Assembly (NCBI GenBank): GCA_001794215.1
Contig: MGJK01000020.1
Span: 1,016 to 65,015 of the forward strand
Source: Candidatus Yanofskybacteria bacterium RIFCSPHIGHO2_01_FULL_44_24
Lineage (GTDB): Bacteria; Patescibacteriota; Minisyncoccia; 2-02-FULL-40-12; GWA2-44-9
Direction: 5' to 3'
Length of the DNA: 64,000 nucleotides
Numbering within the stretch: the stretch's first letter is position 1; each line of letters begins with the position of its first letter. The translations under genes were made by a program, and so were the position numbers. The notes under the pieces are model-generated. The model saw only the letters and a program-made list of their open reading frames with translations. It ran no database searches and was not told the origin of the DNA. Below, one piece after another: positions 3,978 through 62,899 of this stretch.

Positions 3978-4085
3978 AAGAAGTGGCCCAAAGCTTAAGG
4001 CCCCAGATCTAAAGATTTAAACGTTAAGCTTTAAGTGCAATACTAACACGAAATAATAATTTTTGCAATTGCCTAATCGGCCGAT

Positions 4086-4107: not shown

Positions 4108-4719
4108 TTAGTCCGGTACGGCATTGATATGGGCAATCCGATCGTCGTATTCGGCATTATGATTGACCAGCCGAATAGCCAAAAAAAACAAATAGGGGTG
4201 CTTTCTCAAGAAATTCGTCTTCCGATCGCTTTCTTTTTTTAACTTTTTAACCACAGAGAGAATCCCCGATTTCCCGGCTATTTCCGCGGCACGAACATCA
4301 ACCATCCAATGAGGCCGAAAGTCATCGCCAAATCTCTCCGCCTCTTCCGCATGAGCAAATTCATGAGCCAATAAGCCCGCTAACTCATCAGGGGTAAACT
4401 CAATCAACGCTTTCTCGGTTATGTAAATGCATTTATAAACCCAGAAGTAATAAGCGTTGAGATAATCTGCTTTGAAAACAATGACATAGCACGGATCATG
4501 GATAGACAGCGAGACTTTAAATCTTTTTCTTGCCTCATTAATCTGCTCATAGTATCGGACGACCTGGTCATTATACAACGAAGCGGCCGGGAAATCGGTT
4601 TTATGCTCTTCTGTCTCAAGAAATCCAAGAGCATAAATATTTATAAGAAGAAAACAGCCAAGCAGACCCGCAAAAAAACGAAAAATCATCCGCCCAAGCC
4701 AGTTTTTATCAAAGAACAT
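4108..4719 (-). CDS. Membrane-anchored HExxH zinc metallopeptidase-like protein
   Basis: N-terminal TM helix; LAHEFAH motif followed by EEAERFGDD. Confidence 0.45.
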   Translation of the reverse strand: MFFDKNWLGRMIFRFFAGLLGCFLLINIYALGFLETEEHKTDFPAASLYNDQVVRYYEQINEARKRFKVSLSIHDPCYVIVFKADYLNAYYFWVYKCIYITEKALIEFTPDELAGLLAHEFAHAEEAERFGDDFRPHWMVDVRAAEIAGKSGILSVVKKLKKESDRKTNFLRKHPYLFFLAIRLVNHNAEYDDRIAHINAVPD

Positions 4720-11202: not shown

Positions 11203-11232
11203 TTGTTAACTATACGGTGCTTGATATATAAT
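11203..11232 (+). promoter_or_regulatory. sigma70-like promoter TTGTTA-N18-TATAAT upstream of miaA
   Basis: Hexamers at 11203-11208 and 11227-11232. The site also contains the TTGATATATAAT word. Confidence 0.4.
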
Positions 11233-11241
11233 ACACCAAAA

Positions 11242-12264
11242 ATGAATAAAATCAACCGACCGGCTGGCAGAAAGAAAATTATCGTAATCGTAGGGCCCAC
11301 AGCTTCAGGAAAATCCGATTTAGGCGTTGAATTGGCCCGAAAATTTAATGGAGAAATAATATCGGCCGACTCAAGGCAGGTGTACAAAGGAATGGATATC
11401 GGCACCGGCAAAGTCCGAAGAGATCGGACTTTGCCGAAGTTAAAAGTTTTCTTAAAGAAGAATTTTTATTCAGAAGGAGTAAGGCATTATTTATTGGATA
11501 TGGTTTCGCCGAAAAAACAATTCACCGCTGATGATTTTAAAAAACTGGGAGAAAAAACCATTAAAAAAATCCTGGGAGAAAATAAAATTCCGATTATAGT
11601 CGGCGGAACCGGATTTTATATAGATATCCTCCTGGGCCGGATGAAAACGGCTTCGGTGCCGCCAAATTTAAAACTGAGAAAAACTCTCGATAATAAACCG
11701 GCTAAACGATTGTTCGAGATGCTGTTAAAGCTTGACCCCCAACGAGCTAAAACTATCGACCGCCATAATAAGCGCCGACTGATAAGAGCATTAGAGATTA
11801 TCCTCACCACAAAAAGACCTTCTCTGACTACCTACCACTTACTACCTACTACTAACTACAAGGTTTTATGGCTCGGTATAAACCCCGGAAAAGAAGTCCT
11901 GGCTAAGAAAATAAAAAAACGCCTCGACCAAAGATTGGATCAAGGAATGATTAAAGAAGTATTTAAGCTCCGTAAACAAGGAATGAGCTGGAAGAGGCTC
12001 GATAACTTCGGTCTCGAATACCGGTGGCTCTCGCGCTACCTAAAACAATTTTCAATTTTCAATTTTCAATTTTCAACAAAACCAAACGCCGAGAATTTTA
12101 AGAAATCAGAATATTATCAGAATCTTTTAAGGGATATTATCAAATACTCGAAACGCCAGATGACCTGGTTTAAGAGAAATAAAGAGATCCATTGGCTGAG
12201 CTCTAATGAGGCGAGTGAGCTCAGAAAGGCAGAGGGGCTGACGAGAAAATTTATTTATTCCTGA
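11242..12264 (+). CDS. miaA: tRNA dimethylallyltransferase
   Basis: P-loop IIVIVGPTASGKS and ...SADSRQVYKGMDIGTGK. The ORF in the track starts earlier; the ATG at 11242 is preferred. The coding (CAATTTT)x4 repeat at 12048-12078 lies in the C-terminal part. Confidence 0.85.
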   Translation: MNKINRPAGRKKIIVIVGPTASGKSDLGVELARKFNGEIISADSRQVYKGMDIGTGKVRRDRTLPKLKVFLKKNFYSEGVRHYLLDMVSPKKQFTADDFKKLGEKTIKKILGENKIPIIVGGTGFYIDILLGRMKTASVPPNLKLRKTLDNKPAKRLFEMLLKLDPQRAKTIDRHNKRRLIRALEIILTTKRPSLTTYHLLPTTNYKVLWLGINPGKEVLAKKIKKRLDQRLDQGMIKEVFKLRKQGMSWKRLDNFGLEYRWLSRYLKQFSIFNFQFSTKPNAENFKKSEYYQNLLRDIIKYSKRQMTWFKRNKEIHWLSSNEASELRKAEGLTRKFIYS

Positions 12265-22532: not shown

Positions 22533-22812
22533 CGCGGGCGACGGGGCTCGAACCCGCAACCTCATCCGTGCACTTATCTAATATTTTCATATTAGGGTGG
22601 ACTATATCTTGCTCGTGTCTCAATAGAATTAAGATTTAGAGTCTCTGGTATCTAGTCTCTACGGCGCCCCCGCCATAGCGGGGTTCCCACGGTATTACCC
22701 GAGCTTTCGCTGTAGGGCTTCACCGTTATCCCAAAGTTATTCATCTTATAGTTTCCTATAAGAGCTGCGTGACTCCACAGGGATGCGATCTAACCAATTG
22801 ATCTACGCCCGC
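22533..22812 (-). tRNA. tRNA-Asp(GUC) interrupted by a group I intron between positions 35 and 36 (exon 1 22812-22777, exon 2 22570-22533)
   Basis: Spliced sequence: GCGGGCGTAGATCAATTGGTTAGATCGCATCCCTGT|CACGGATGAGGTTGCGGGTTCGAGCCCCGTCGCCCGCG. The cloverleaf is perfect. T-arm GCGGGTTCGAGYCCCGT matches E. coli tRNA-Asp. The discriminator is G73. The anticodon loop is CUGUCAC. CCA is not encoded. Confidence 0.85.
22571..22776 (-). mobile_element. Group I self-splicing intron (IC3 / Azoarcus-like), ~206 nt, with no internal ORF
   Basis: P1 by exon CUGU|G pairing with IGS CGCAG, placing a U.G wobble at the splice site. P2 hairpin CTTATAG-GAAA-CTATAAG. A GCGAAAGC GNRA tetraloop. The conserved GUAGAGACUAGA (J8/7-P7) word. 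The S element AAGATATAGTCC. Terminal G before the 3' splice site. Confidence 0.8.
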
Positions 22813-23564
22813 AATAAATTTTTAAAATAATGCTCAAATATAACCTTTTTTCTGCTTAAATACAACTTCCCGGCATCCTTATACATAAAGTTATATAGAC
22901 CAAAGCTGTCGTTAGAAGAGAAACATAATCGATGACCTTGGGCATAGAATAGAGTCCCTCCCTTAACAACCGCGTACTTTTTTAATACGCCCCAAAGTCC
23001 TTTTAAAAATTTCTTACTTCCTGAGGTAAGGCCGGTTATAATAATTTTGCTTTTATGCTTGCGGTCTTTTTTCTGATATTCCGACGCAGATACATGTCCA
23101 TCACCATCAAAATAGCCTCTTAAAAAATGTGGGGCAAGCGCTCGAGGTATCTTTGGCATTTTTAGAATTAGGCTTTTATTCGGCATAAAGCCCAGACGTA
23201 GAAGATCCTTGAATATCTCCTTGCTTCCAATCTGTATTTGATATGCCTTTTTCCAGTTTTTATTTTGTAAGTTTTTCTTTCTGATATAAATTTTATGATC
23301 AGAGCCTAAACAAAACTTGATCTTCTCAAGAATATCTCGGTCGGTACTATAGAATGCGATAAAATGAGCGCCTCGCTTGTTTTTGATCATATTCCCATCA
23401 GCCGCAAAAAACCCTAAAACATAAGTCATTTCTGGCGACCAATTCTTGAAAAAATCCTCATTCTTAGCTTTAAATACGGGCATTTTACCAATAAATTCTA
23501 CCGCATTTCCGGCAAAATTAAAAGCCCGCATAAAGCGGGCTTTTGAAAATTTTATCTGTCCCAA
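22803..23564 (-). CDS. LAGLIDADG homing endonuclease (double-motif), free-standing, 3' end overlapping the tRNA-Asp 5' end by 10 nt
   Basis: Two LAGLIDADG motifs: LGFFAADGNM and LRGYFDGDGHV. The likely true start is MPVFKAKNEDF at about 23483. The stop TAG lies inside the tRNA acceptor stem. Confidence 0.8.
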   Translation of the reverse strand: MGQIKFSKARFMRAFNFAGNAVEFIGKMPVFKAKNEDFFKNWSPEMTYVLGFFAADGNMIKNKRGAHFIAFYSTDRDILEKIKFCLGSDHKIYIRKKNLQNKNWKKAYQIQIGSKEIFKDLLRLGFMPNKSLILKMPKIPRALAPHFLRGYFDGDGHVSASEYQKKDRKHKSKIIITGLTSGSKKFLKGLWGVLKKYAVVKGGTLFYAQGHRLCFSSNDSFGLYNFMYKDAGKLYLSRKKVIFEHYFKNLLRA

Positions 23565-25009
23565 GACTCTTTCTGGGCGGCCAAAGAAAGCTTAACCAAA
23601 TGCTTCCTTGGGTTCTTCATGAAAATCTCTCGAGCTTCCTGAAGAGACATCCCGCCCAAATAACTGACAGTGGATGCAAGGTGGCCGGCTATCTCTCTGA
23701 TGATCGGGATCACAGATCCTTTGTACTCTATCTTTTTCTCAAGTCCCTCTGGACTTAGTTTGGAAGAGGTTTCATAAGGATCGTCTACCTCTTCGGCTCG
23801 AAGCCTTTCATACATAGCCTCACGGGAAGCCATACCCCGGAATATCTTGGCCTTTCTGCCGGTTGAATCTCTGAAAACGAGACCGGGAGTTTCATCGGTT
23901 CCGGCAATAAGTCCTCCAACCATAACCGATTCTGCTCCCAAAAGAAGAGCCGAGGCGATGTGTCCGTCTCTCTTTATTCCCCCATCAGCTATGATTGGAA
24001 CATCAGAAACTCTGGCACAATCATAGATAGCCTGAGCCTGAGGAACGCCTATATTGGTATTAAATCTGGTCGTGCAAGCCGATCCCGGTCCAAGTCCGAT
24101 CTTCAGACCGTTTACGCCCAAATCCTGATAGACTTTCACTGCGTCCGGGTCAACAATATTGCCGACAACCAATTCTGCTTCTGGAAATTTACTCCTGAGA
24201 TTCTTAACCGCTTCAAGGCCAACATCCGATTGGAAGTTAGCGATATCCATAATTAGGACATCCGCTCCGATCTTGATCAGTTCAGCCGTACGCTCTATAT
24301 AATCTCCGGTGGCGCCGACAGCCGCACCGACCACGAGTCGTCCGTTGGTATCTTTGTTGGCTAATGGATAGAGTCCGAGATTTTCGATATCTTTAGAAGT
24401 TATCAGACCGACAAGTTTCCTATCTTTGTCGACCAAAGGAAGCTTCTCAAGTCGGTTTCTATCCAAAATCTGGCGAGCCTTTGAAAAAGAAACGTCCGGC
24501 GAGGCCGTAATCAAATCTTTTTCCGATTTCATCCTTTCAGCCACGAGCTGATCATCGGAAGCAAATCTGACATCCCTCGAGCTAAGCAGTCCGAGCAACT
24601 TGCCGCTGTCGTTTATGACGACCAAACAGCCGATTTTTTCTCTTTCCATTATTTTACGGGCTTCGCCGATAGTGCTCCCCTTGGAAATACTCCGGGGATT
24701 TTCAATTACTGAGCTCTCTTTACGCTTGACCTCTTCGACTTTTTTACATTGATCCCCTATGCCGAGGTACCGATGGATAATACCGATTCCGCCTTCTCTG
24801 GCGAAGGCAATAGCCATACGGGCACCCGTTATCGTGTCCATATTGGCGGAAACGACGGGCACATTAAGAGAAACATGCTCTGAAAACCGCGAAATCAGGG
24901 ATATTCCCTTTCTGCTTTTAGCCTTTCCCCAACCGGGAGGAACCAAAAAATCATCAAAAGTACAGCCTCTGAGCTGATTTAAAAGCCACTGATCCTGCCG
25001 GCTCTTCAC
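23552..25009 (-). CDS. guaB: IMP dehydrogenase
   Basis: CBS pair plus catalytic loop IGLGPGSACTTR and GGLIAGTDETPG. Confidence 0.9.
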   Translation of the reverse strand: MKSRQDQWLLNQLRGCTFDDFLVPPGWGKAKSRKGISLISRFSEHVSLNVPVVSANMDTITGARMAIAFAREGGIGIIHRYLGIGDQCKKVEEVKRKESSVIENPRSISKGSTIGEARKIMEREKIGCLVVINDSGKLLGLLSSRDVRFASDDQLVAERMKSEKDLITASPDVSFSKARQILDRNRLEKLPLVDKDRKLVGLITSKDIENLGLYPLANKDTNGRLVVGAAVGATGDYIERTAELIKIGADVLIMDIANFQSDVGLEAVKNLRSKFPEAELVVGNIVDPDAVKVYQDLGVNGLKIGLGPGSACTTRFNTNIGVPQAQAIYDCARVSDVPIIADGGIKRDGHIASALLLGAESVMVGGLIAGTDETPGLVFRDSTGRKAKIFRGMASREAMYERLRAEEVDDPYETSSKLSPEGLEKKIEYKGSVIPIIREIAGHLASTVSYLGGMSLQEAREIFMKNPRKHLVKLSLAAQKESWDR

Positions 25010-25050
25010 GAAATGACTCCTTCTGATTTAAAAGATCACCCCGTACTAAT

Positions 25051-25100
25051 ACCACAACAAAGGGCATCTTTGCAATTGCAAAGATGCCCTTTGTTGTGGT
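25051..25100. repeat. 50-bp perfect palindrome ACCACAACAAAGGGCATCTTTGCAA|TTGCAAAGATGCCCTTTGTTGTGGT
   Basis: 25-bp arms with no mismatch. It shares the core CAACAAAGGGCATCTTTGCAA with 25684-25719. Confidence 0.85.
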
Positions 25101-25145
25101 ATCCAAGATAGTTTTAAACTTTCGTATTTAAAATTTAGATATTGT

Positions 25146-25610
25146 TTAGGATTTTTCTTCGAGAGAGGGATGCCAATAAATTTTTTCTATTTTACGGGTG
25201 CCGTTATAGGTATAATGGTGCTTTGCAATAAATCCTGTATCGCGAGAGCTATTGCTAACGGCCATATCGTTGCCCATATAAAACCCGATGTGATAATGCT
25301 CTTGGCCGTCACCGGAAGAGACTTTTTTCTCCCAAACCAAAACAGCCCCCGGCCTCGGTTCCTTCGCCTCTTTCCAGCCGAACTTAATCATATCTTTTTC
25401 GGTACTCTTCACATTCGCATGCAGATCTGTGATCATTTTTGATAAATATAAAATCGAGGAAACAAAAAAGGCACAGCTCAAGCCTCCGTCTTTTAGAATA
25501 TCAATTTCTTTTCCGTCAATTTCCGCGTATAAATTCCTGAACATCCAGTTTTCACCCTTAACTGCGTTCTCTATCAGGGTTAAGTAGTTTTTTGTCAATG
25601 AAAGTTTCAT
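25146..25610 (-). CDS. hypothetical protein with a Cys...His pattern (possible NlpC/P60- or CHAP-like hydrolase)
   Basis: GLSCAFFVSSIL ... HIGFYMGND. The assignment is tentative. Confidence 0.3.
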   Translation of the reverse strand: MKLSLTKNYLTLIENAVKGENWMFRNLYAEIDGKEIDILKDGGLSCAFFVSSILYLSKMITDLHANVKSTEKDMIKFGWKEAKEPRPGAVLVWEKKVSSGDGQEHYHIGFYMGNDMAVSNSSRDTGFIAKHHYTYNGTRKIEKIYWHPSLEEKS

Positions 25611-25630
25611 ATGAGATTATTTAATCATAT

Positions 25631-25719
25631 AACCAGAAACTCCGCAAAAAGCGGAGTTTCTGGTTGTTCATTTTCTTATCCTCAACAAAGGGCATCTTTG
25701 CAAAGATGCCCTTTGTTGA
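25631..25719. repeat. Two adjacent perfect palindromes: AACCAGAAACTCCGCaaaaaGCGGAGTTTCTGGTT (25631-25665) and CAACAAAGGGCATCTTTG|CAAAGATGCCCTTTGTTG (25684-25719)
   Basis: Direct reading. The second is a copy of the core of the 25051-25100 palindrome. Confidence 0.85.
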
Positions 25720-25752: not shown

Positions 25753-28245
25753 TTACTTTGGCCTGATTTCTTTCCAAATAGGAATCGCCTTGCCGACAGA
25801 AACCTGCCTTTGACTGCTCGTACAAGAGTAACCATTTACATCAGTAGACCTTACGGTAACTTGATAAATACCCTCTAACGTATACGTGTGAGTGGGGTTC
25901 TGAAGCGTGCTGGTCTGGGCATCGCCGAAATTCCAGAGCCAGGCCGAGGGAGCGGCGGAGAAATTAGTTCTATCGGTAAAAGTAGCCGGGAAACTCACTG
26001 GAGGAGCGGAAGGAAAAACGTTCGGATGATAATTCGGAGCACGATTATCCGGCCAGGCATTGACTGGCGTTCTCCAGCTCGTATTTCCAGCCTGACAACC
26101 TCCCGGACTTACAGGATAACCGTTACAAATTGTCATGTTAGCCCAAGTCGATGGCAAGCCTGCGTTATTCCAAGCCATGACACGGGCATAATAAATCGTG
26201 TTAAAGGCTAATACTCCTTGCGGAATAGTATAATTTCTGGAGGCTCCTCCTCCGCAATTAGAACCGGAAGGACAGGAATCGACTAAAGGACTGCTAAAAT
26301 TAGAGTCGTTATCTACCTGCACCCGACGGCCGCGCTGAGGATTTGATCCCGGATCCGAGTATGACCAGCTTACATCGCCTCCCGGCCCTCCTCCGCAATA
26401 AGTCGGCTCGGCAAGAGTTACATTGCTGACGGTCGGAGGTACGCTGAGGTTGAAATTAGTTTCAAAATTGACCCAACCAGATCCTTCCCATCCAGCGCTA
26501 TAAGCATAACCCGAAATATCGTTATTCGTTAACGGACCATCGACTCCAAAATTTGGATTGAAAGCCACCGTATAGACCACGGTGCGGCTGTTCCCGCTGA
26601 TTGAGCTTGAGCATGAAACAAGTTCTAAGTAATCATGACCATAGCCAGTGGATGACCCCGTATTTTGAATAGAAGCCCAGCCACCACTTCCTAAAGGTGA
26701 ACATGCTTGATTGTCTTTAGTGCCCGACCAACCGCCCCCATCAGTACTATCCCAGGCAATAAATCCTCGATAGGCACCGGAATTTGTACCCTGATAATTT
26801 ATAATGATGTACTGATGACGTATATTTGCCCCTCCGGTAGAAATCATGCTGGTTTCTGTAATGTTGTATGTGGTGACACCGTCGGGTATAACCGTCGGAG
26901 AACTAATAGTTATACTATTAACGGTCGGAGGGGGGAGATACATACCAAAGTCATGGCGTAAGGGAGGATTGCACTCAGCCTCACAGCCGGCTAAAGTCTG
27001 ATAACAAAATCCTGTCGTCTGACCAGGAAGGTATATAGCTAAATTAGCCTCGCAAGAAGCCCTATCCGCGTAATAACTCGAGGTCTGGTTGCAAGTATAA
27101 TTAAGATCTGTCCTGCAGGCATACATTTTTTGTTTAACCCTTATGCTACCGGTACACGTTTCGCCGAACCACTCAACACCATCCTGAACCATCGCCCAAT
27201 CAAACGGATAGACGCCCCCAAGAGTCGGAAAATCGGGAGCGATAAAATTATAGGTAAAAATAGTCGAAACTCCGGGACCTATCGGCTCCGAAGAAAGAGA
27301 CACTCTGCTGGTCCCCCACCTTGTATTGTCTCGGGAGTTTTGGGAACCAAGCCTGTAATCTGCCCCACTGGTCCAGCTGGTAGTGCCGTTATTCATCATG
27401 GTTATCGATGCGGAAAATGTCTGACCGGCATTAACCTCTGCGGGTGCGCTGATTCCTATACACTGAGCGCTATTAACCGAAAATACATTAACAGTGACTG
27501 AATCCTGGGGACTAGTTCCCCCGGGTCCGGTACAATCTATCGTAAATGTCGTCGGCGAGTTAATGGGTCCGGAAGATTCGCTGTTGTTGGGATTGGCTGT
27601 TTTTCCACCCGACCATCCCCCGGAAGCCGTACAAGAAGTAGCGTTACCGGAAACAGTCCAAGAGAGGTTACCGCTATAACCGGGATTAACAGTAACCGGA
27701 CCGTCAGATCCGTCAAAGAAAATATTTACTGAGGGCGGAGGGGGGGGGATGATAGTAAAGGGAATAAACTGATCGCTTGAATCGTCATTACTGTTGGCGG
27801 CACTCAGATGAATGGTATAGTCTCCGGGACCGAGACCCGATATATCAATATACTCTTGGAATGAGTAATTCCATTCCTGCAAATCGCTGCATTGGTTGGC
27901 GTAACCGTTCGTATTGTTTGTTGCGCTAACCGGCCCGGCCAAACCGGTGCCAAGGATATCGTAATATAATGACCCCAACTCAAATGCATAAGAATCATAG
28001 AACCCTGATCCGCACATGCACTCAACCGTACCGGCATCATAATCTCCATAAACAGAGATCGTTTGTGGCCCAACAAAATCAACAGCAGCAAAAGTTATCT
28101 CCGGTAAATTATCAATGCCTCCCTCAGGACAATTCCCGCCGGAATCTATGGCGTAAGCGATCGGAGCTTCGTAAATACCGTTAAGGAACATAAAAACAGC
28201 CAAGATCGAAAATATAATAAGGCTTAAAATTAAAGAAATACGCAT
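25753..28245 (-). CDS. Large secreted Gly/Ser/Thr/Asn-rich surface protein with a C-terminal PKD domain
   Basis: Signal peptide MRISLILSLIIFSILAVFMF. PKD motif near the C-terminus (NPTHTYTLEGIYQVTVRSTDVNGYS). Confidence 0.6.
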   Translation of the reverse strand: MRISLILSLIIFSILAVFMFLNGIYEAPIAYAIDSGGNCPEGGIDNLPEITFAAVDFVGPQTISVYGDYDAGTVECMCGSGFYDSYAFELGSLYYDILGTGLAGPVSATNNTNGYANQCSDLQEWNYSFQEYIDISGLGPGDYTIHLSAANSNDDSSDQFIPFTIIPPPPPSVNIFFDGSDGPVTVNPGYSGNLSWTVSGNATSCTASGGWSGGKTANPNNSESSGPINSPTTFTIDCTGPGGTSPQDSVTVNVFSVNSAQCIGISAPAEVNAGQTFSASITMMNNGTTSWTSGADYRLGSQNSRDNTRWGTSRVSLSSEPIGPGVSTIFTYNFIAPDFPTLGGVYPFDWAMVQDGVEWFGETCTGSIRVKQKMYACRTDLNYTCNQTSSYYADRASCEANLAIYLPGQTTGFCYQTLAGCEAECNPPLRHDFGMYLPPPTVNSITISSPTVIPDGVTTYNITETSMISTGGANIRHQYIIINYQGTNSGAYRGFIAWDSTDGGGWSGTKDNQACSPLGSGGWASIQNTGSSTGYGHDYLELVSCSSSISGNSRTVVYTVAFNPNFGVDGPLTNNDISGYAYSAGWEGSGWVNFETNFNLSVPPTVSNVTLAEPTYCGGGPGGDVSWSYSDPGSNPQRGRRVQVDNDSNFSSPLVDSCPSGSNCGGGASRNYTIPQGVLAFNTIYYARVMAWNNAGLPSTWANMTICNGYPVSPGGCQAGNTSWRTPVNAWPDNRAPNYHPNVFPSAPPVSFPATFTDRTNFSAAPSAWLWNFGDAQTSTLQNPTHTYTLEGIYQVTVRSTDVNGYSCTSSQRQVSVGKAIPIWKEIRPK

Positions 28246-31065: not shown

Positions 31066-31722
31066 TTAATCCAGTATTTCTGTCTTGAATTTCTTAGCCT
31101 CCTCCATGAAAAAATTCTGCCAATCTTGGATCGGTAGATTCTTAATCATTCTCGGATAATCTTCAGCCTCTGTCGCTTTAACGAACTGGGTCCCAAGCTG
31201 GATAAGGTCGAGGTGCCAATCAAATTTGATTCTGGCCTTCTTTATTAGGTCGCTGACTAAATACCCTTTATGCCGACAAATGGAATATAGATCTATAAAA
31301 TCTCGGGCTTTCGTTCTTTGGTATATCGTAAATAATTTATTTACTCCGATATCTAAAATACTGTCTATCGCTAGGTCTTTCTGTTTCTCTCCTCGATCAA
31401 GTCTGGGAAATGGGAAAAAAGTGAATTCTGCCTTCAAGATCTCATTGTCGAAGTGCAGAAAAAATAGGTTTCTGTTATAGCTCTGCTGAAAATCGATTTT
31501 TTTTATCCGCAAATTTTTCTTTATTTGACTGAAAAAAACATTCAAGTTAAAGATATCGAATTCTTTTTCAGAAAAAAAATCCAGATCTTCCGAGTAACGA
31601 TGGTTGAGATAAAAAGCCGCCAGAGCCGTACCTCCGGTAAGATAAAAATTCTCTGTAATGAACCTGTCGCTCCCAATCTTATCAAGAACAGTAATCTGGT
31701 TTTTAGTAAGTATTTCTTTCAC
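31066..31722 (-). CDS. AbiEii-type nucleotidyltransferase (DUF1814 / type IV toxin-antitoxin toxin family)
   Basis: YLTGGTALAAFYLNHRYSEDLDFF matches the AbiEii NTase signature (GGTAL...HRxSxDLDF). Confidence 0.75.
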   Translation of the reverse strand: MKEILTKNQITVLDKIGSDRFITENFYLTGGTALAAFYLNHRYSEDLDFFSEKEFDIFNLNVFFSQIKKNLRIKKIDFQQSYNRNLFFLHFDNEILKAEFTFFPFPRLDRGEKQKDLAIDSILDIGVNKLFTIYQRTKARDFIDLYSICRHKGYLVSDLIKKARIKFDWHLDLIQLGTQFVKATEAEDYPRMIKNLPIQDWQNFFMEEAKKFKTEILD

Positions 31723-49917: not shown

Positions 49918-50076
49918 GTCAAACACCTCCTATATGGGAGGTGTTTTAAAATCACGCCACCCTTTATGATATATCATAAAGGGTGGCTGTTCACTATATC
50001 ATTGCCAAATTCGATTTGAAATTAAAATCCATAGTAAAGGCGGGTTTTTAATTAACAAAACCGCCTTAAGCGGCGG

Positions 50077-62515: not shown

Positions 62516-62860
62516 ATGACCCGAGTCAAAAGAGGCGTACAAGCTAATCGAAGGAGAAAGAGGCTGCTGAAACATGCAAAGGGTTTTATGTGGACCCGCG
62601 ATTCCAAGTACCGCCAAGCCAAAGAAGCCCTTCTCCATGCCTGGTCATTCCAATTCGTAGGAAGAAAGAACAAGAAAAGAGACTTTCGAAGATTATGGCA
62701 GGTCAAGATAGGAGCCGCGGCCAAAGAAAACGGAATAAGCTACAGCAGACTGATCGACCGGCTTCATAAGGCCAAGATAGAGCTCGATAGGAAGATACTC
62801 GCCGATCTGGCGGAAAACCATCCGGAGACGTTTAAGAAAATAATCTCCCAGTCACAATAA
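62516..62860 (+). CDS. rplT: 50S ribosomal protein L20
   Basis: MTRVKRGVQANRRRKRLLKHAKGF. Confidence 0.9.
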   Translation: MTRVKRGVQANRRRKRLLKHAKGFMWTRDSKYRQAKEALLHAWSFQFVGRKNKKRDFRRLWQVKIGAAAKENGISYSRLIDRLHKAKIELDRKILADLAENHPETFKKIISQSQ

Positions 62861-62899
62861 ATCCCCGATCGGGGATTTATTGTGACTGGGAGAGTTCTT
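62856..62899. repeat. 44-bp perfect palindrome CCCAGTCACAATAAATCCCC|GATC|GGGGATTTATTGTGACTGGG that supplies the last codons and stops of both convergent ORFs
   Basis: Each arm encodes ...SQSQ* for rplT (+) and for the 62877-63131 ORF (-). It acts as a bidirectional terminator. Confidence 0.85.

Follow-up and report, generated by a model that had tools for sequence, protein, structure and literature searches.

REP-RAYT units consist of an HUH/Y1 gene flanked by inverted copies of a dispersed palindrome, and the enzyme and its repeat co-vary (PMC2817692, PMC6006769). In REPINs, conserved inverted ends enclose a spacer and the ends undergo compensatory changes (PMC3116915). REPs have been found just after genes and also within them, many of these being replication and repair genes, and the ends of REPs can supply stop codons (PMC3733652). 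REPs without the GT[AG]G head are known in one RAYT subclass (PMC6006769). The literature searched held nothing specific on palindromic insertions in the Candidate Phyla Radiation (CPR), nor on RAYTs or REPINs in Patescibacteria.

The locus described here comes from the genome of a Candidatus Yanofskybacteria from Rifle groundwater. The whole stretch of DNA that was analysed, 64 kb long, is referred to as the window. Its relevant features, including two related palindromes called P1 and P2, are the following:

23552-25009, minus strand: IMP dehydrogenase (IMPDH) gene, guaB, downstream of P1
25049-25102, no strand: P1, a probable REP/REPIN-like element; 54-bp perfect palindrome, specific to this lineage
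25146-25610, minus strand: 154-aa gene, resident and syntenic, outside the mobile element
25631-25665, minus strand: hairpin with a 15-bp stem, unrelated to P1 and P2, between P2 and the start of the 154-aa gene
25682-25719, no strand: P2, of the same family as P1; 38-bp perfect palindrome with an orthologous copy in relatives
25753-28245, minus strand: gene of an 830-aa PKD-domain surface protein; its 3' untranslated region carries P2
62844-62893, no strand: third palindrome, 50 bp, perfect, unrelated in sequence to P1 and P2

Read along the minus strand, the order is surface protein, P2, small hairpin, 154-aa gene, P1, IMPDH and a LAGLIDADG open reading frame, with all the genes pointing the same way. 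P2 lies 33 nt past the stop codon of the surface-protein gene, within its 3' untranslated region. P1 lies 43 nt past the stop codon of the 154-aa gene and 39 nt ahead of the IMPDH start. Both palindromes are intergenic, which is where REPs are expected. P1 is equivalent to P2 with CAATTG added at the centre and with other outer flanks, the common sequence amounting to 36 bp. The core CAACAAAGGGCATCTTTGCAA is found four times in the window, once in each arm of P1 and P2, compared with 0.00 expected from 100 shuffles. The palindromes are real and far above chance expectation. There is no third copy of P1 or P2 in the window, even with up to three mismatches allowed.

A sequence-only reading of this DNA had described the two palindromes, their shared core and the hairpin between them, and inspection of the sequence finds all of these to be present, apart from small errors in coordinates. 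The P1 given there (25051-25100) is a perfect sub-palindrome of the full 54 bp. The palindrome given as P2 (25684-25719) exists, but is asymmetric in that form and becomes perfect as the 38 bp listed above. The hairpin at 25631-25665 was placed correctly, with 15-bp arms and a 5-nt loop. It was seen in this species only, without a second copy among the loci compared, and probably represents a stem-loop of the ordinary 3' or leader type.

Nine independent assemblies of this species carry P1 and P2 without any difference, and a tenth, short contig has P2 alone. The exact 154-aa protein is encoded on 22 independently assembled contigs from Rifle groundwater, two Candidatus Yanofskybacteria genome assemblies among them, and the comparison of P1 and P2 covered ten of these contigs. 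An assembly artefact is therefore ruled out. When folded as RNA, P1 reaches -46.2 kcal/mol (z = -11.9), and the region comprising P2 and the small hairpin -54.9 kcal/mol (z = -10.5). Like REPs, P1 and P2 are thus short palindromic repeats with the potential to form a stable hairpin. Searches of Rfam returned only sub-threshold matches to generic, microRNA-like hairpins at the locus, and no family over the hairpins of sixteen related loci.

The position of P1 and P2, between co-directional genes and 33-43 nt past stop codons, would suit ordinary bidirectional intrinsic terminators that resemble each other owing to one local duplication and do not belong to any mobile family. The stems show an A-tract, a G+C core and a T-tract, and unrelated terminator hairpins fill the same spacers in three relatives (L068, L069 and L074). 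A terminator scan flagged P2 and the 25631-25665 hairpin, on the plus strand only, which is opposite to the genes; P1 was not flagged. On the gene-sense strand, however, the U-rich stretch falls inside the stem, and no T-run follows either P1 or P2.

P1 and P2 are members of a dispersed family. Its arms are CAAAGGGCATCTTTG / CAAAGATGCCCTTTG, while the centre and the flanks are variable. The ends of the unit are two inverted conserved stretches of 15-20 nt, ..ACAAAGGGCATCTTTG.. and ..CAAAGATGCCCTTTGT.., and each arm is itself a small palindrome, CAAAG-N5-CTTTG. The spacer between the arms measures from 0 to 41 nt across the family. A scan of reference genomes, one per species, with a 19-nt arm gave 11 matches. 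Four of these belong to complete hairpins and come exclusively from Patescibacteria (Saccharibacteria, two Yanofskybacteria and one unclassified); the other seven, from other phyla, are isolated chance matches outside any hairpin. Metagenomes were scanned with a pattern that required both arms to be perfect and was written to leave out this species' own copies. This yielded 44 loci with about 45 hairpins, mostly from Rifle and Hainich groundwater and with unrelated flanks. Their centres are 0, 5, 6, 10, 16 or 26 nt long, and their 15-nt arms are identical by design of the pattern, so that the apparent conservation of the arms stems partly from how the copies were found. Variants that were not selected by the pattern are present in the same contigs. 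In these, both arms have changed and the palindromes are still perfect; one has its arms swapped. Many copies are palindromic right through the centre. In having conserved inverted ends around a variable spacer, and compensatory changes, the family shows REPIN anatomy. Some relatives hold up to three copies per 12-kb locus. The family hairpin was not found in viral contigs.

The earlier notion of a class of palindromes confined to one genome does not survive these results, since the family spans several lineages of Patescibacteria. Nor are the palindromes unique to this locus, related copies occurring in both genomes and metagenomes. That about 45 unrelated contexts, in several lineages, share these 30 nt of arms also argues against locally duplicated terminators.

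Three rearranged family members were observed. The arms are in swapped order at L030 9743-9792, one arm is triplicated at L049 1203-1249, and L038 3167-3206 is a shortened CAAG/CTTG version. These forms suggest that the four CAAAG/CTTTG blocks recombine with one another or undergo template switching.

Several kinds of site can be set aside. A DNA uptake sequence is rejected because the arms never occur alone in CPR genomes: every CPR match to one arm is part of a full hairpin. A duplex site of the parS, operator or telomere-resolvase type is rejected on account of the spacer, which varies from 0 to 41 nt, and of the many non-palindromic centres. The more general proposal that the palindromes bind a cellular protein, as operators or chromosome-organising sites, and are kept by selection and not by mobility, is very improbable. 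Arm sequences are conserved across lineages, and a site in TypA described below persists with compensated changes, as such a function would require. Nevertheless, half-sites spaced by 0 to 41 nt are ill-suited to a dimer on double-stranded DNA, the copies within unrelated genes use all three frames, and the outer flanks vary.

The family is associated with genes for a transposase. In L023, hairpins at 3996-4031 and 4678-4719 bracket a 210-aa open reading frame that matches Y1_Tnp (Pfam E = 6.6e-13). The best NCBIfam model for four homologues is the REP-associated tyrosine transposase (REP_Tyr_transpos), with scores of 44-73 bits relative to a curated cut-off of 80. The NCBIfam IS200 model scores about 16-17 bits on these RAYT-like proteins, far under the REP model. 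Alignment of 18 RAYT sequences shows that HxH and Y-I-H-x-N-P are invariant (H78, H80, Y138, H140, N142, P143), so that the HUH motif, the catalytic Tyr and the adjoining NP motif typical of RAYTs are all present. The profile made a single match in the PDB, to 4ER8, the TnpA-REP of E. coli (E = 5.5e-4), and none to the TnpA proteins of IS608 or ISDra2; a lone RAYT sequence gave no match in the PDB. There are 4190 homologues at E below 1e-10, found in Patescibacteria, for which the RayT name comes from one source. Many of the RAYT-type transposase genes are on contigs of about 1 kb. A profile search found no RAYT gene in the 64-kb window.

Family hairpins lie 0-16 nt off both sides of the RAYT gene in L023, L041, L070/L071 and L072, the distances in L041 being 14 nt ahead of the start and 2 nt past the stop. 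A family hairpin overlaps the 3' end of the RAYT gene, on one side, in L060. These are five independent loci, and RAYT homologues adjoin family hairpins in every locus that has one. The variant of the hairpin is the same on both sides of each RAYT gene: both flanking hairpins have the GGGCACC variant in L070/L071 and the CAATGGGCATC variant in L072, which is a Yanofskybacteria genome. Variant hairpins are paired with variant transposases, and in L070 the hairpin that immediately follows the RAYT gene is one compensated pair away from P2. More distant RAYT-like genes have different flanking hairpins, CCAAGGGCGGCCCTTGG in L038 and ATCTTTCGAC/GTCGAAAGAT around L041 1380-1961. The position of the RAYT gene is fixed, in the order DUF4012-RAYT-LepA in L041, L070 and L072, and next to LepA in L023. 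An IS200/IS605 insertion sequence is rejected on the basis of this fixed position, of hairpins that occur without the gene, and of the score of only about 16-17 bits with the IS200 model.

Two further observations concern these loci. The RAYT genes themselves hold one repeat arm in frame (L023 4036-4665; L041 8760-8784), encoding QRASLQ, in a variable loop of the alignment. Genes for an AbiEii toxin of a type IV toxin-antitoxin system are found in the window (31066-31722) and directly beside the RAYT unit in L023 (4829-5506).

Flanked RAYT genes with matched hairpin variants, together with the dispersed arms, are the hallmark of REP-RAYT and therefore point to a known kind of mobile DNA in a new host group. 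P1 and P2 are probably two copies of a REP/REPIN-like, RAYT-linked repeat family of Patescibacteria (CPR). The suggestion that the palindromes are protein-binding or recombination sites was right in spirit only, inasmuch as family hairpins flank the gene of a RAYT-type HUH transposase.

The family might also have spread without a transposase, by template switching or gene conversion as proposed for the Rickettsia palindromic elements, in which case the proximity of RAYT genes would be incidental. Perfect palindromy through the centre of many copies fits this mechanism, as do the swapped-arm (L030 at 9743) and triplicated-arm (L049) variants, the equal-length replacements in RecO, MiaA and Tgt discussed below, and a window without a RAYT gene. 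It is nonetheless unlikely. In each of the five independent loci, family hairpins flank the RAYT gene at close range, the arm variant is alike on both sides of that gene, and other RAYT clades have other flanking hairpins, as is characteristic of REP-RAYT units (PMC2817692).

About half of the copies are located in long open reading frames. Outside the window, 19 of about 42 copies, a biased sample, are in frame in housekeeping genes. The hosts identified by Pfam are RecG, aminopeptidase N, Dus, Tgt, RNase HII, two GT2 glycosyltransferases, RecO, MiaA and RuvA; a class II aldolase, a DUF4012 protein and a TPR protein were likewise confirmed. In these assignments the Pfam domain matches cross the hairpin-encoded segment or stand on both sides of it. 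Intragenic copies occur in at least 14 protein-coding genes and use all three reading frames, the arms having no stop codon in any frame. The palindromes had been thought to rewrite the 3' ends of genes, a description that is too narrow given that copies are also found in frame within genes. Termination would be harmful at such places. Considering also the copies on both sides of RAYT genes, it is quite unlikely that P1 and P2 are mere terminators.

Five TypA genes have a copy at one shared site. The 120 closest TypA homologues were classified by pattern, and 37 fell outside the pattern. The site is empty in about 60 of the 120, which read VPPASLNENGKMSAQVF and are about 600 aa long, and filled in about 19-24, which are 11 to 15 aa longer, about 607-618 aa in all. 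Sites in this family are thus gained or lost at defined positions, as seen from the filled and empty TypA sites and from the seven relatives that are missing P1. Spreading of the palindromes by insertion, as first supposed, is upheld in spirit by the same two observations and by the occurrence of the arms in dozens of unrelated contexts. A stricter pattern matched 19 filled homologues. Comparison of first-arm with second-arm residues in these gave QG..PL nine times, QR..PF eight times and mixed combinations not once. Gln-Gly/Pro-Leu is the translation of CAAGGGG/CCCCTTG, and Gln-Arg/Pro-Phe that of CAAAGGG/CCCTTTG. The residue pairs therefore translate matched arms, showing that the hairpin is kept by paired changes within the coding region. 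A larger non-coding RNA, considered for the subfamily with the ACAAGCTTGT centre, is rejected because its conserved flanks are TypA coding sequence.

The orthologues of RecO, MiaA and Tgt that lack the family hairpin are equal in length at that place, and simple insertion does not account for this. Two other hairpins in coding regions were noted. At L018 1490-1534 a variant hairpin, TTACAATGGGCACCTTTGC ... GCAAAGGCGCCCATTGTAA, is in frame in the adenylation domain of the NAD-dependent DNA ligase, LigA. The window has a perfect hairpin with a 13-bp stem at 11406-11436, inside MiaA (11203-12264). One of its arms corresponds to the conserved G-K-V codons, and it adjoins the site of the family hairpin in the L054 orthologue. 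Both the window and the L054 MiaA appear to be about 13 residues longer here than E. coli MiaA.

The surroundings of P1 and P2 were compared in seven relatives (L017, L066, L067, L068, L069, L073 and L074). The order surface protein, 154-aa gene, IMPDH is kept in all of them, sometimes with a C39 peptidase intervening between the 154-aa gene and IMPDH. The synteny of the 154-aa gene holds in relatives with or without palindromes, including those with the upstream palindrome only. This gene has 190 homologues, and its product matches the NlpC/P60 and CHAP families of Pfam weakly, both under the curated cut-offs. Judged from gene order, it is a bystander that does not move and was probably bracketed by chance.

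It had been proposed that the palindromes confer cassette-like mobility on the gene between them. This fails in the comparison of the seven relatives, in which the gene has the same neighbours throughout. Sites resembling the attC of integrons, bounding a mobile cassette with the 154-aa gene, are scarcely credible for the same reason, and an attC gene cassette is rejected by synteny. The arrangement of one gene between two related palindromes, among co-directional genes, does recall a cassette; against this, the gene is syntenic in relatives that have no palindrome or the upstream one alone. attC sites need unpaired bases. P1 and P2 are perfect, without such bases, and there is no integrase among the neighbouring genes that were scanned or among the genes and Pfam matches on record for the 20-kb locus.

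The site of P2 is occupied by the family in the closer of these relatives. L017 has the same arms around a 35-nt centre. L066 and L067 read ACAACTGGCACCTTTGCGAT|ATCGC... and ATAAGGGGCATCTTTG|CAAAG..., respectively, with changes on both arms that leave the palindrome perfect. A single arm is left in L073, and unrelated, terminator-like hairpins are found in L068, L069 and L074. P1 is not present at the orthologous spacer in any of the seven, which have an unrelated hairpin there or none. Orthologous copies of P2 with compensated changes, and the lack of P1 in relatives, therefore indicate that P2 is old and that P1 is a new copy confined to this lineage.

Some other properties of the locus may be recorded here. 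The LAGLIDADG open reading frame (22803-23564) encodes a free-standing homing endonuclease and overlaps with the IMPDH gene at the latter's 3' end; all the strain contigs have it, but L066 and L067 lack it at that place. The motif GTGAaCTTTTAAA, situated within 25010-25040 just upstream of the IMPDH ribosome-binding site, is conserved in L017, L067 and L073, and is 9 nt from the end of P1. The first part of L017 (1-2400) translates like very G+C-rich DNA, unlike the remainder of this Yanofskybacteria contig, and could result from chimeric assembly or be of foreign origin.

The following mechanism may be envisaged for the proposed REP/REPIN-like family. If the family behaves like E. coli TnpA-REP and REPINs, the unit would form a hairpin when its DNA is single-stranded. 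This hairpin would be recognised, and copied or moved to new sites, by a RAYT-type HUH/Y1 transposase whose gene is single-copy and vertically inherited. P2 would be long established in the 3' untranslated region of the surface-protein gene. The simplest source of P1 is P2 or a sister copy, and P1 may have landed in the next spacer through the RAYT or through local copying; the resident 154-aa gene would therefore have become bracketed by chance. P1 and P2 would be transcribed as very stable 3' stem-loops, which may terminate transcripts or protect their 3' ends. As no frame of the arms contains a stop codon, copies inserted in frame into tolerant protein loops could survive.

A further reading goes beyond this mechanism and is doubtful: the hairpins would be more than selfish passengers, a domesticated RAYT keeping up perfectly symmetric mini-hairpins that the genome-reduced CPR host puts to use, as stem-loops at 3' ends and as in-frame RNA or DNA hairpins. 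Equally tentative is its placing of the in-frame hairpins in genes for translation and DNA repair, within inter-domain loops. Such use by the host would explain why the TypA copy persists throughout a clade with strictly compensated changes, and also the equal-length replacement in RecO, MiaA and Tgt.

Two other palindromes of the window have sequences of their own. The arms of the third palindrome provide the last codons and the stop (SQSQ-stop) of two convergent open reading frames, as had been stated, although it is the 50 bp at 62844-62893 and not 44 bp at 62856-62899. One of these frames, 62516-62860, resembles ribosomal protein L20 by eye, and its convergent partner is a small coiled-coil open reading frame. 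The palindrome has no other copy in the loci compared. A 32-bp perfect palindrome at 49956-49987, GCCACCCTTTATGATA|TATCATAAAGGGTGGC, recurs with unrelated flanks at L052 361-404 in a CPR contig from Rifle, which points to a second dispersed palindrome family.

The striking palindromes of this locus would thus be explained by a REP/RAYT-type system in the Candidate Phyla Radiation. Such CPR repeats have not been described in the literature searched, although the transposase is already labelled as such by annotation pipelines. Even at a size of about 1 Mb, genomes accommodate a miniature mobile repeat, including in-frame copies in core genes such as TypA, RecG, RuvA and MiaA, and conserved proteins are lengthened by it by 11-15 residues. 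The repeats probably break metagenome assemblies and could serve as strain markers.

P1 and P2 resemble bidirectional intrinsic terminators in their position after stop codons, in the succession of A-tract, G+C stem and T-tract, and in the great stability of their RNA hairpins. They differ from these in having a sequence common to unrelated loci and lineages, in having copies in coding regions, and in having no free T-run on the gene-sense strand. With IS200/IS605 elements, which have a Y1 transposase (TnpA) and subterminal hairpins, the CPR unit shares an HUH/Y1 enzyme with hairpins at both ends of the gene. The CPR gene, however, is syntenic and single-copy instead of multi-copy, and its hairpins spread without it.

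As with the intragenic REPs and the Rickettsia palindromic elements described in PMC3733652 and the work it cites, CPR copies lie in frame in functional genes and add a short peptide to a tolerant loop. The hosts of intragenic REPs are often replication and repair genes, to which RecG, RecO, RuvA, LigA and RNase HII correspond in the CPR. RPE-1 is 100-150 bp long and has no transposase assigned to it, whereas the CPR elements lengthen proteins by 11-15 residues and have a RAYT linked to them; the two have no similarity in sequence.

The closest systems are the REP/REPIN-RAYT systems of Enterobacteria, Pseudomonas and Stenotrophomonas (PMC2817692, PMC3116915, PMC3333891, PMC5581495). The CPR family differs from them in its host, a genome-reduced member of the CPR/Patescibacteria, and in the size of its units, 30-60 bp as opposed to about 70-110 bp for REPINs. 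Its units are perfectly symmetric and often loopless, unlike REPs. Canonical REPs have a GT[AG]G or CGTC head, which is missing from most CPR copies: P1 and P2 show GTTG instead, the ends elsewhere are GTAA, GTAT, GTGA, GACA or GGC, and GTAG is seen only in L023, L038, L046, L052 and L070. A large share of the CPR copies is intragenic, an exception already described among REPs (PMC3733652). A genome typically holds more than 100 classical REPs, compared with two copies in the 64 kb of the window, a count for the window only. The palindrome anatomy and the compensatory changes, on the other hand, are alike, and the CPR repeats, like REPs and REPINs, are mostly situated just downstream of co-directional or convergent genes. 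As in those systems, the HUH/Y1 gene is single-copy, has a fixed place in the chromosome and is bracketed by its own repeats, which are specific to each clade.
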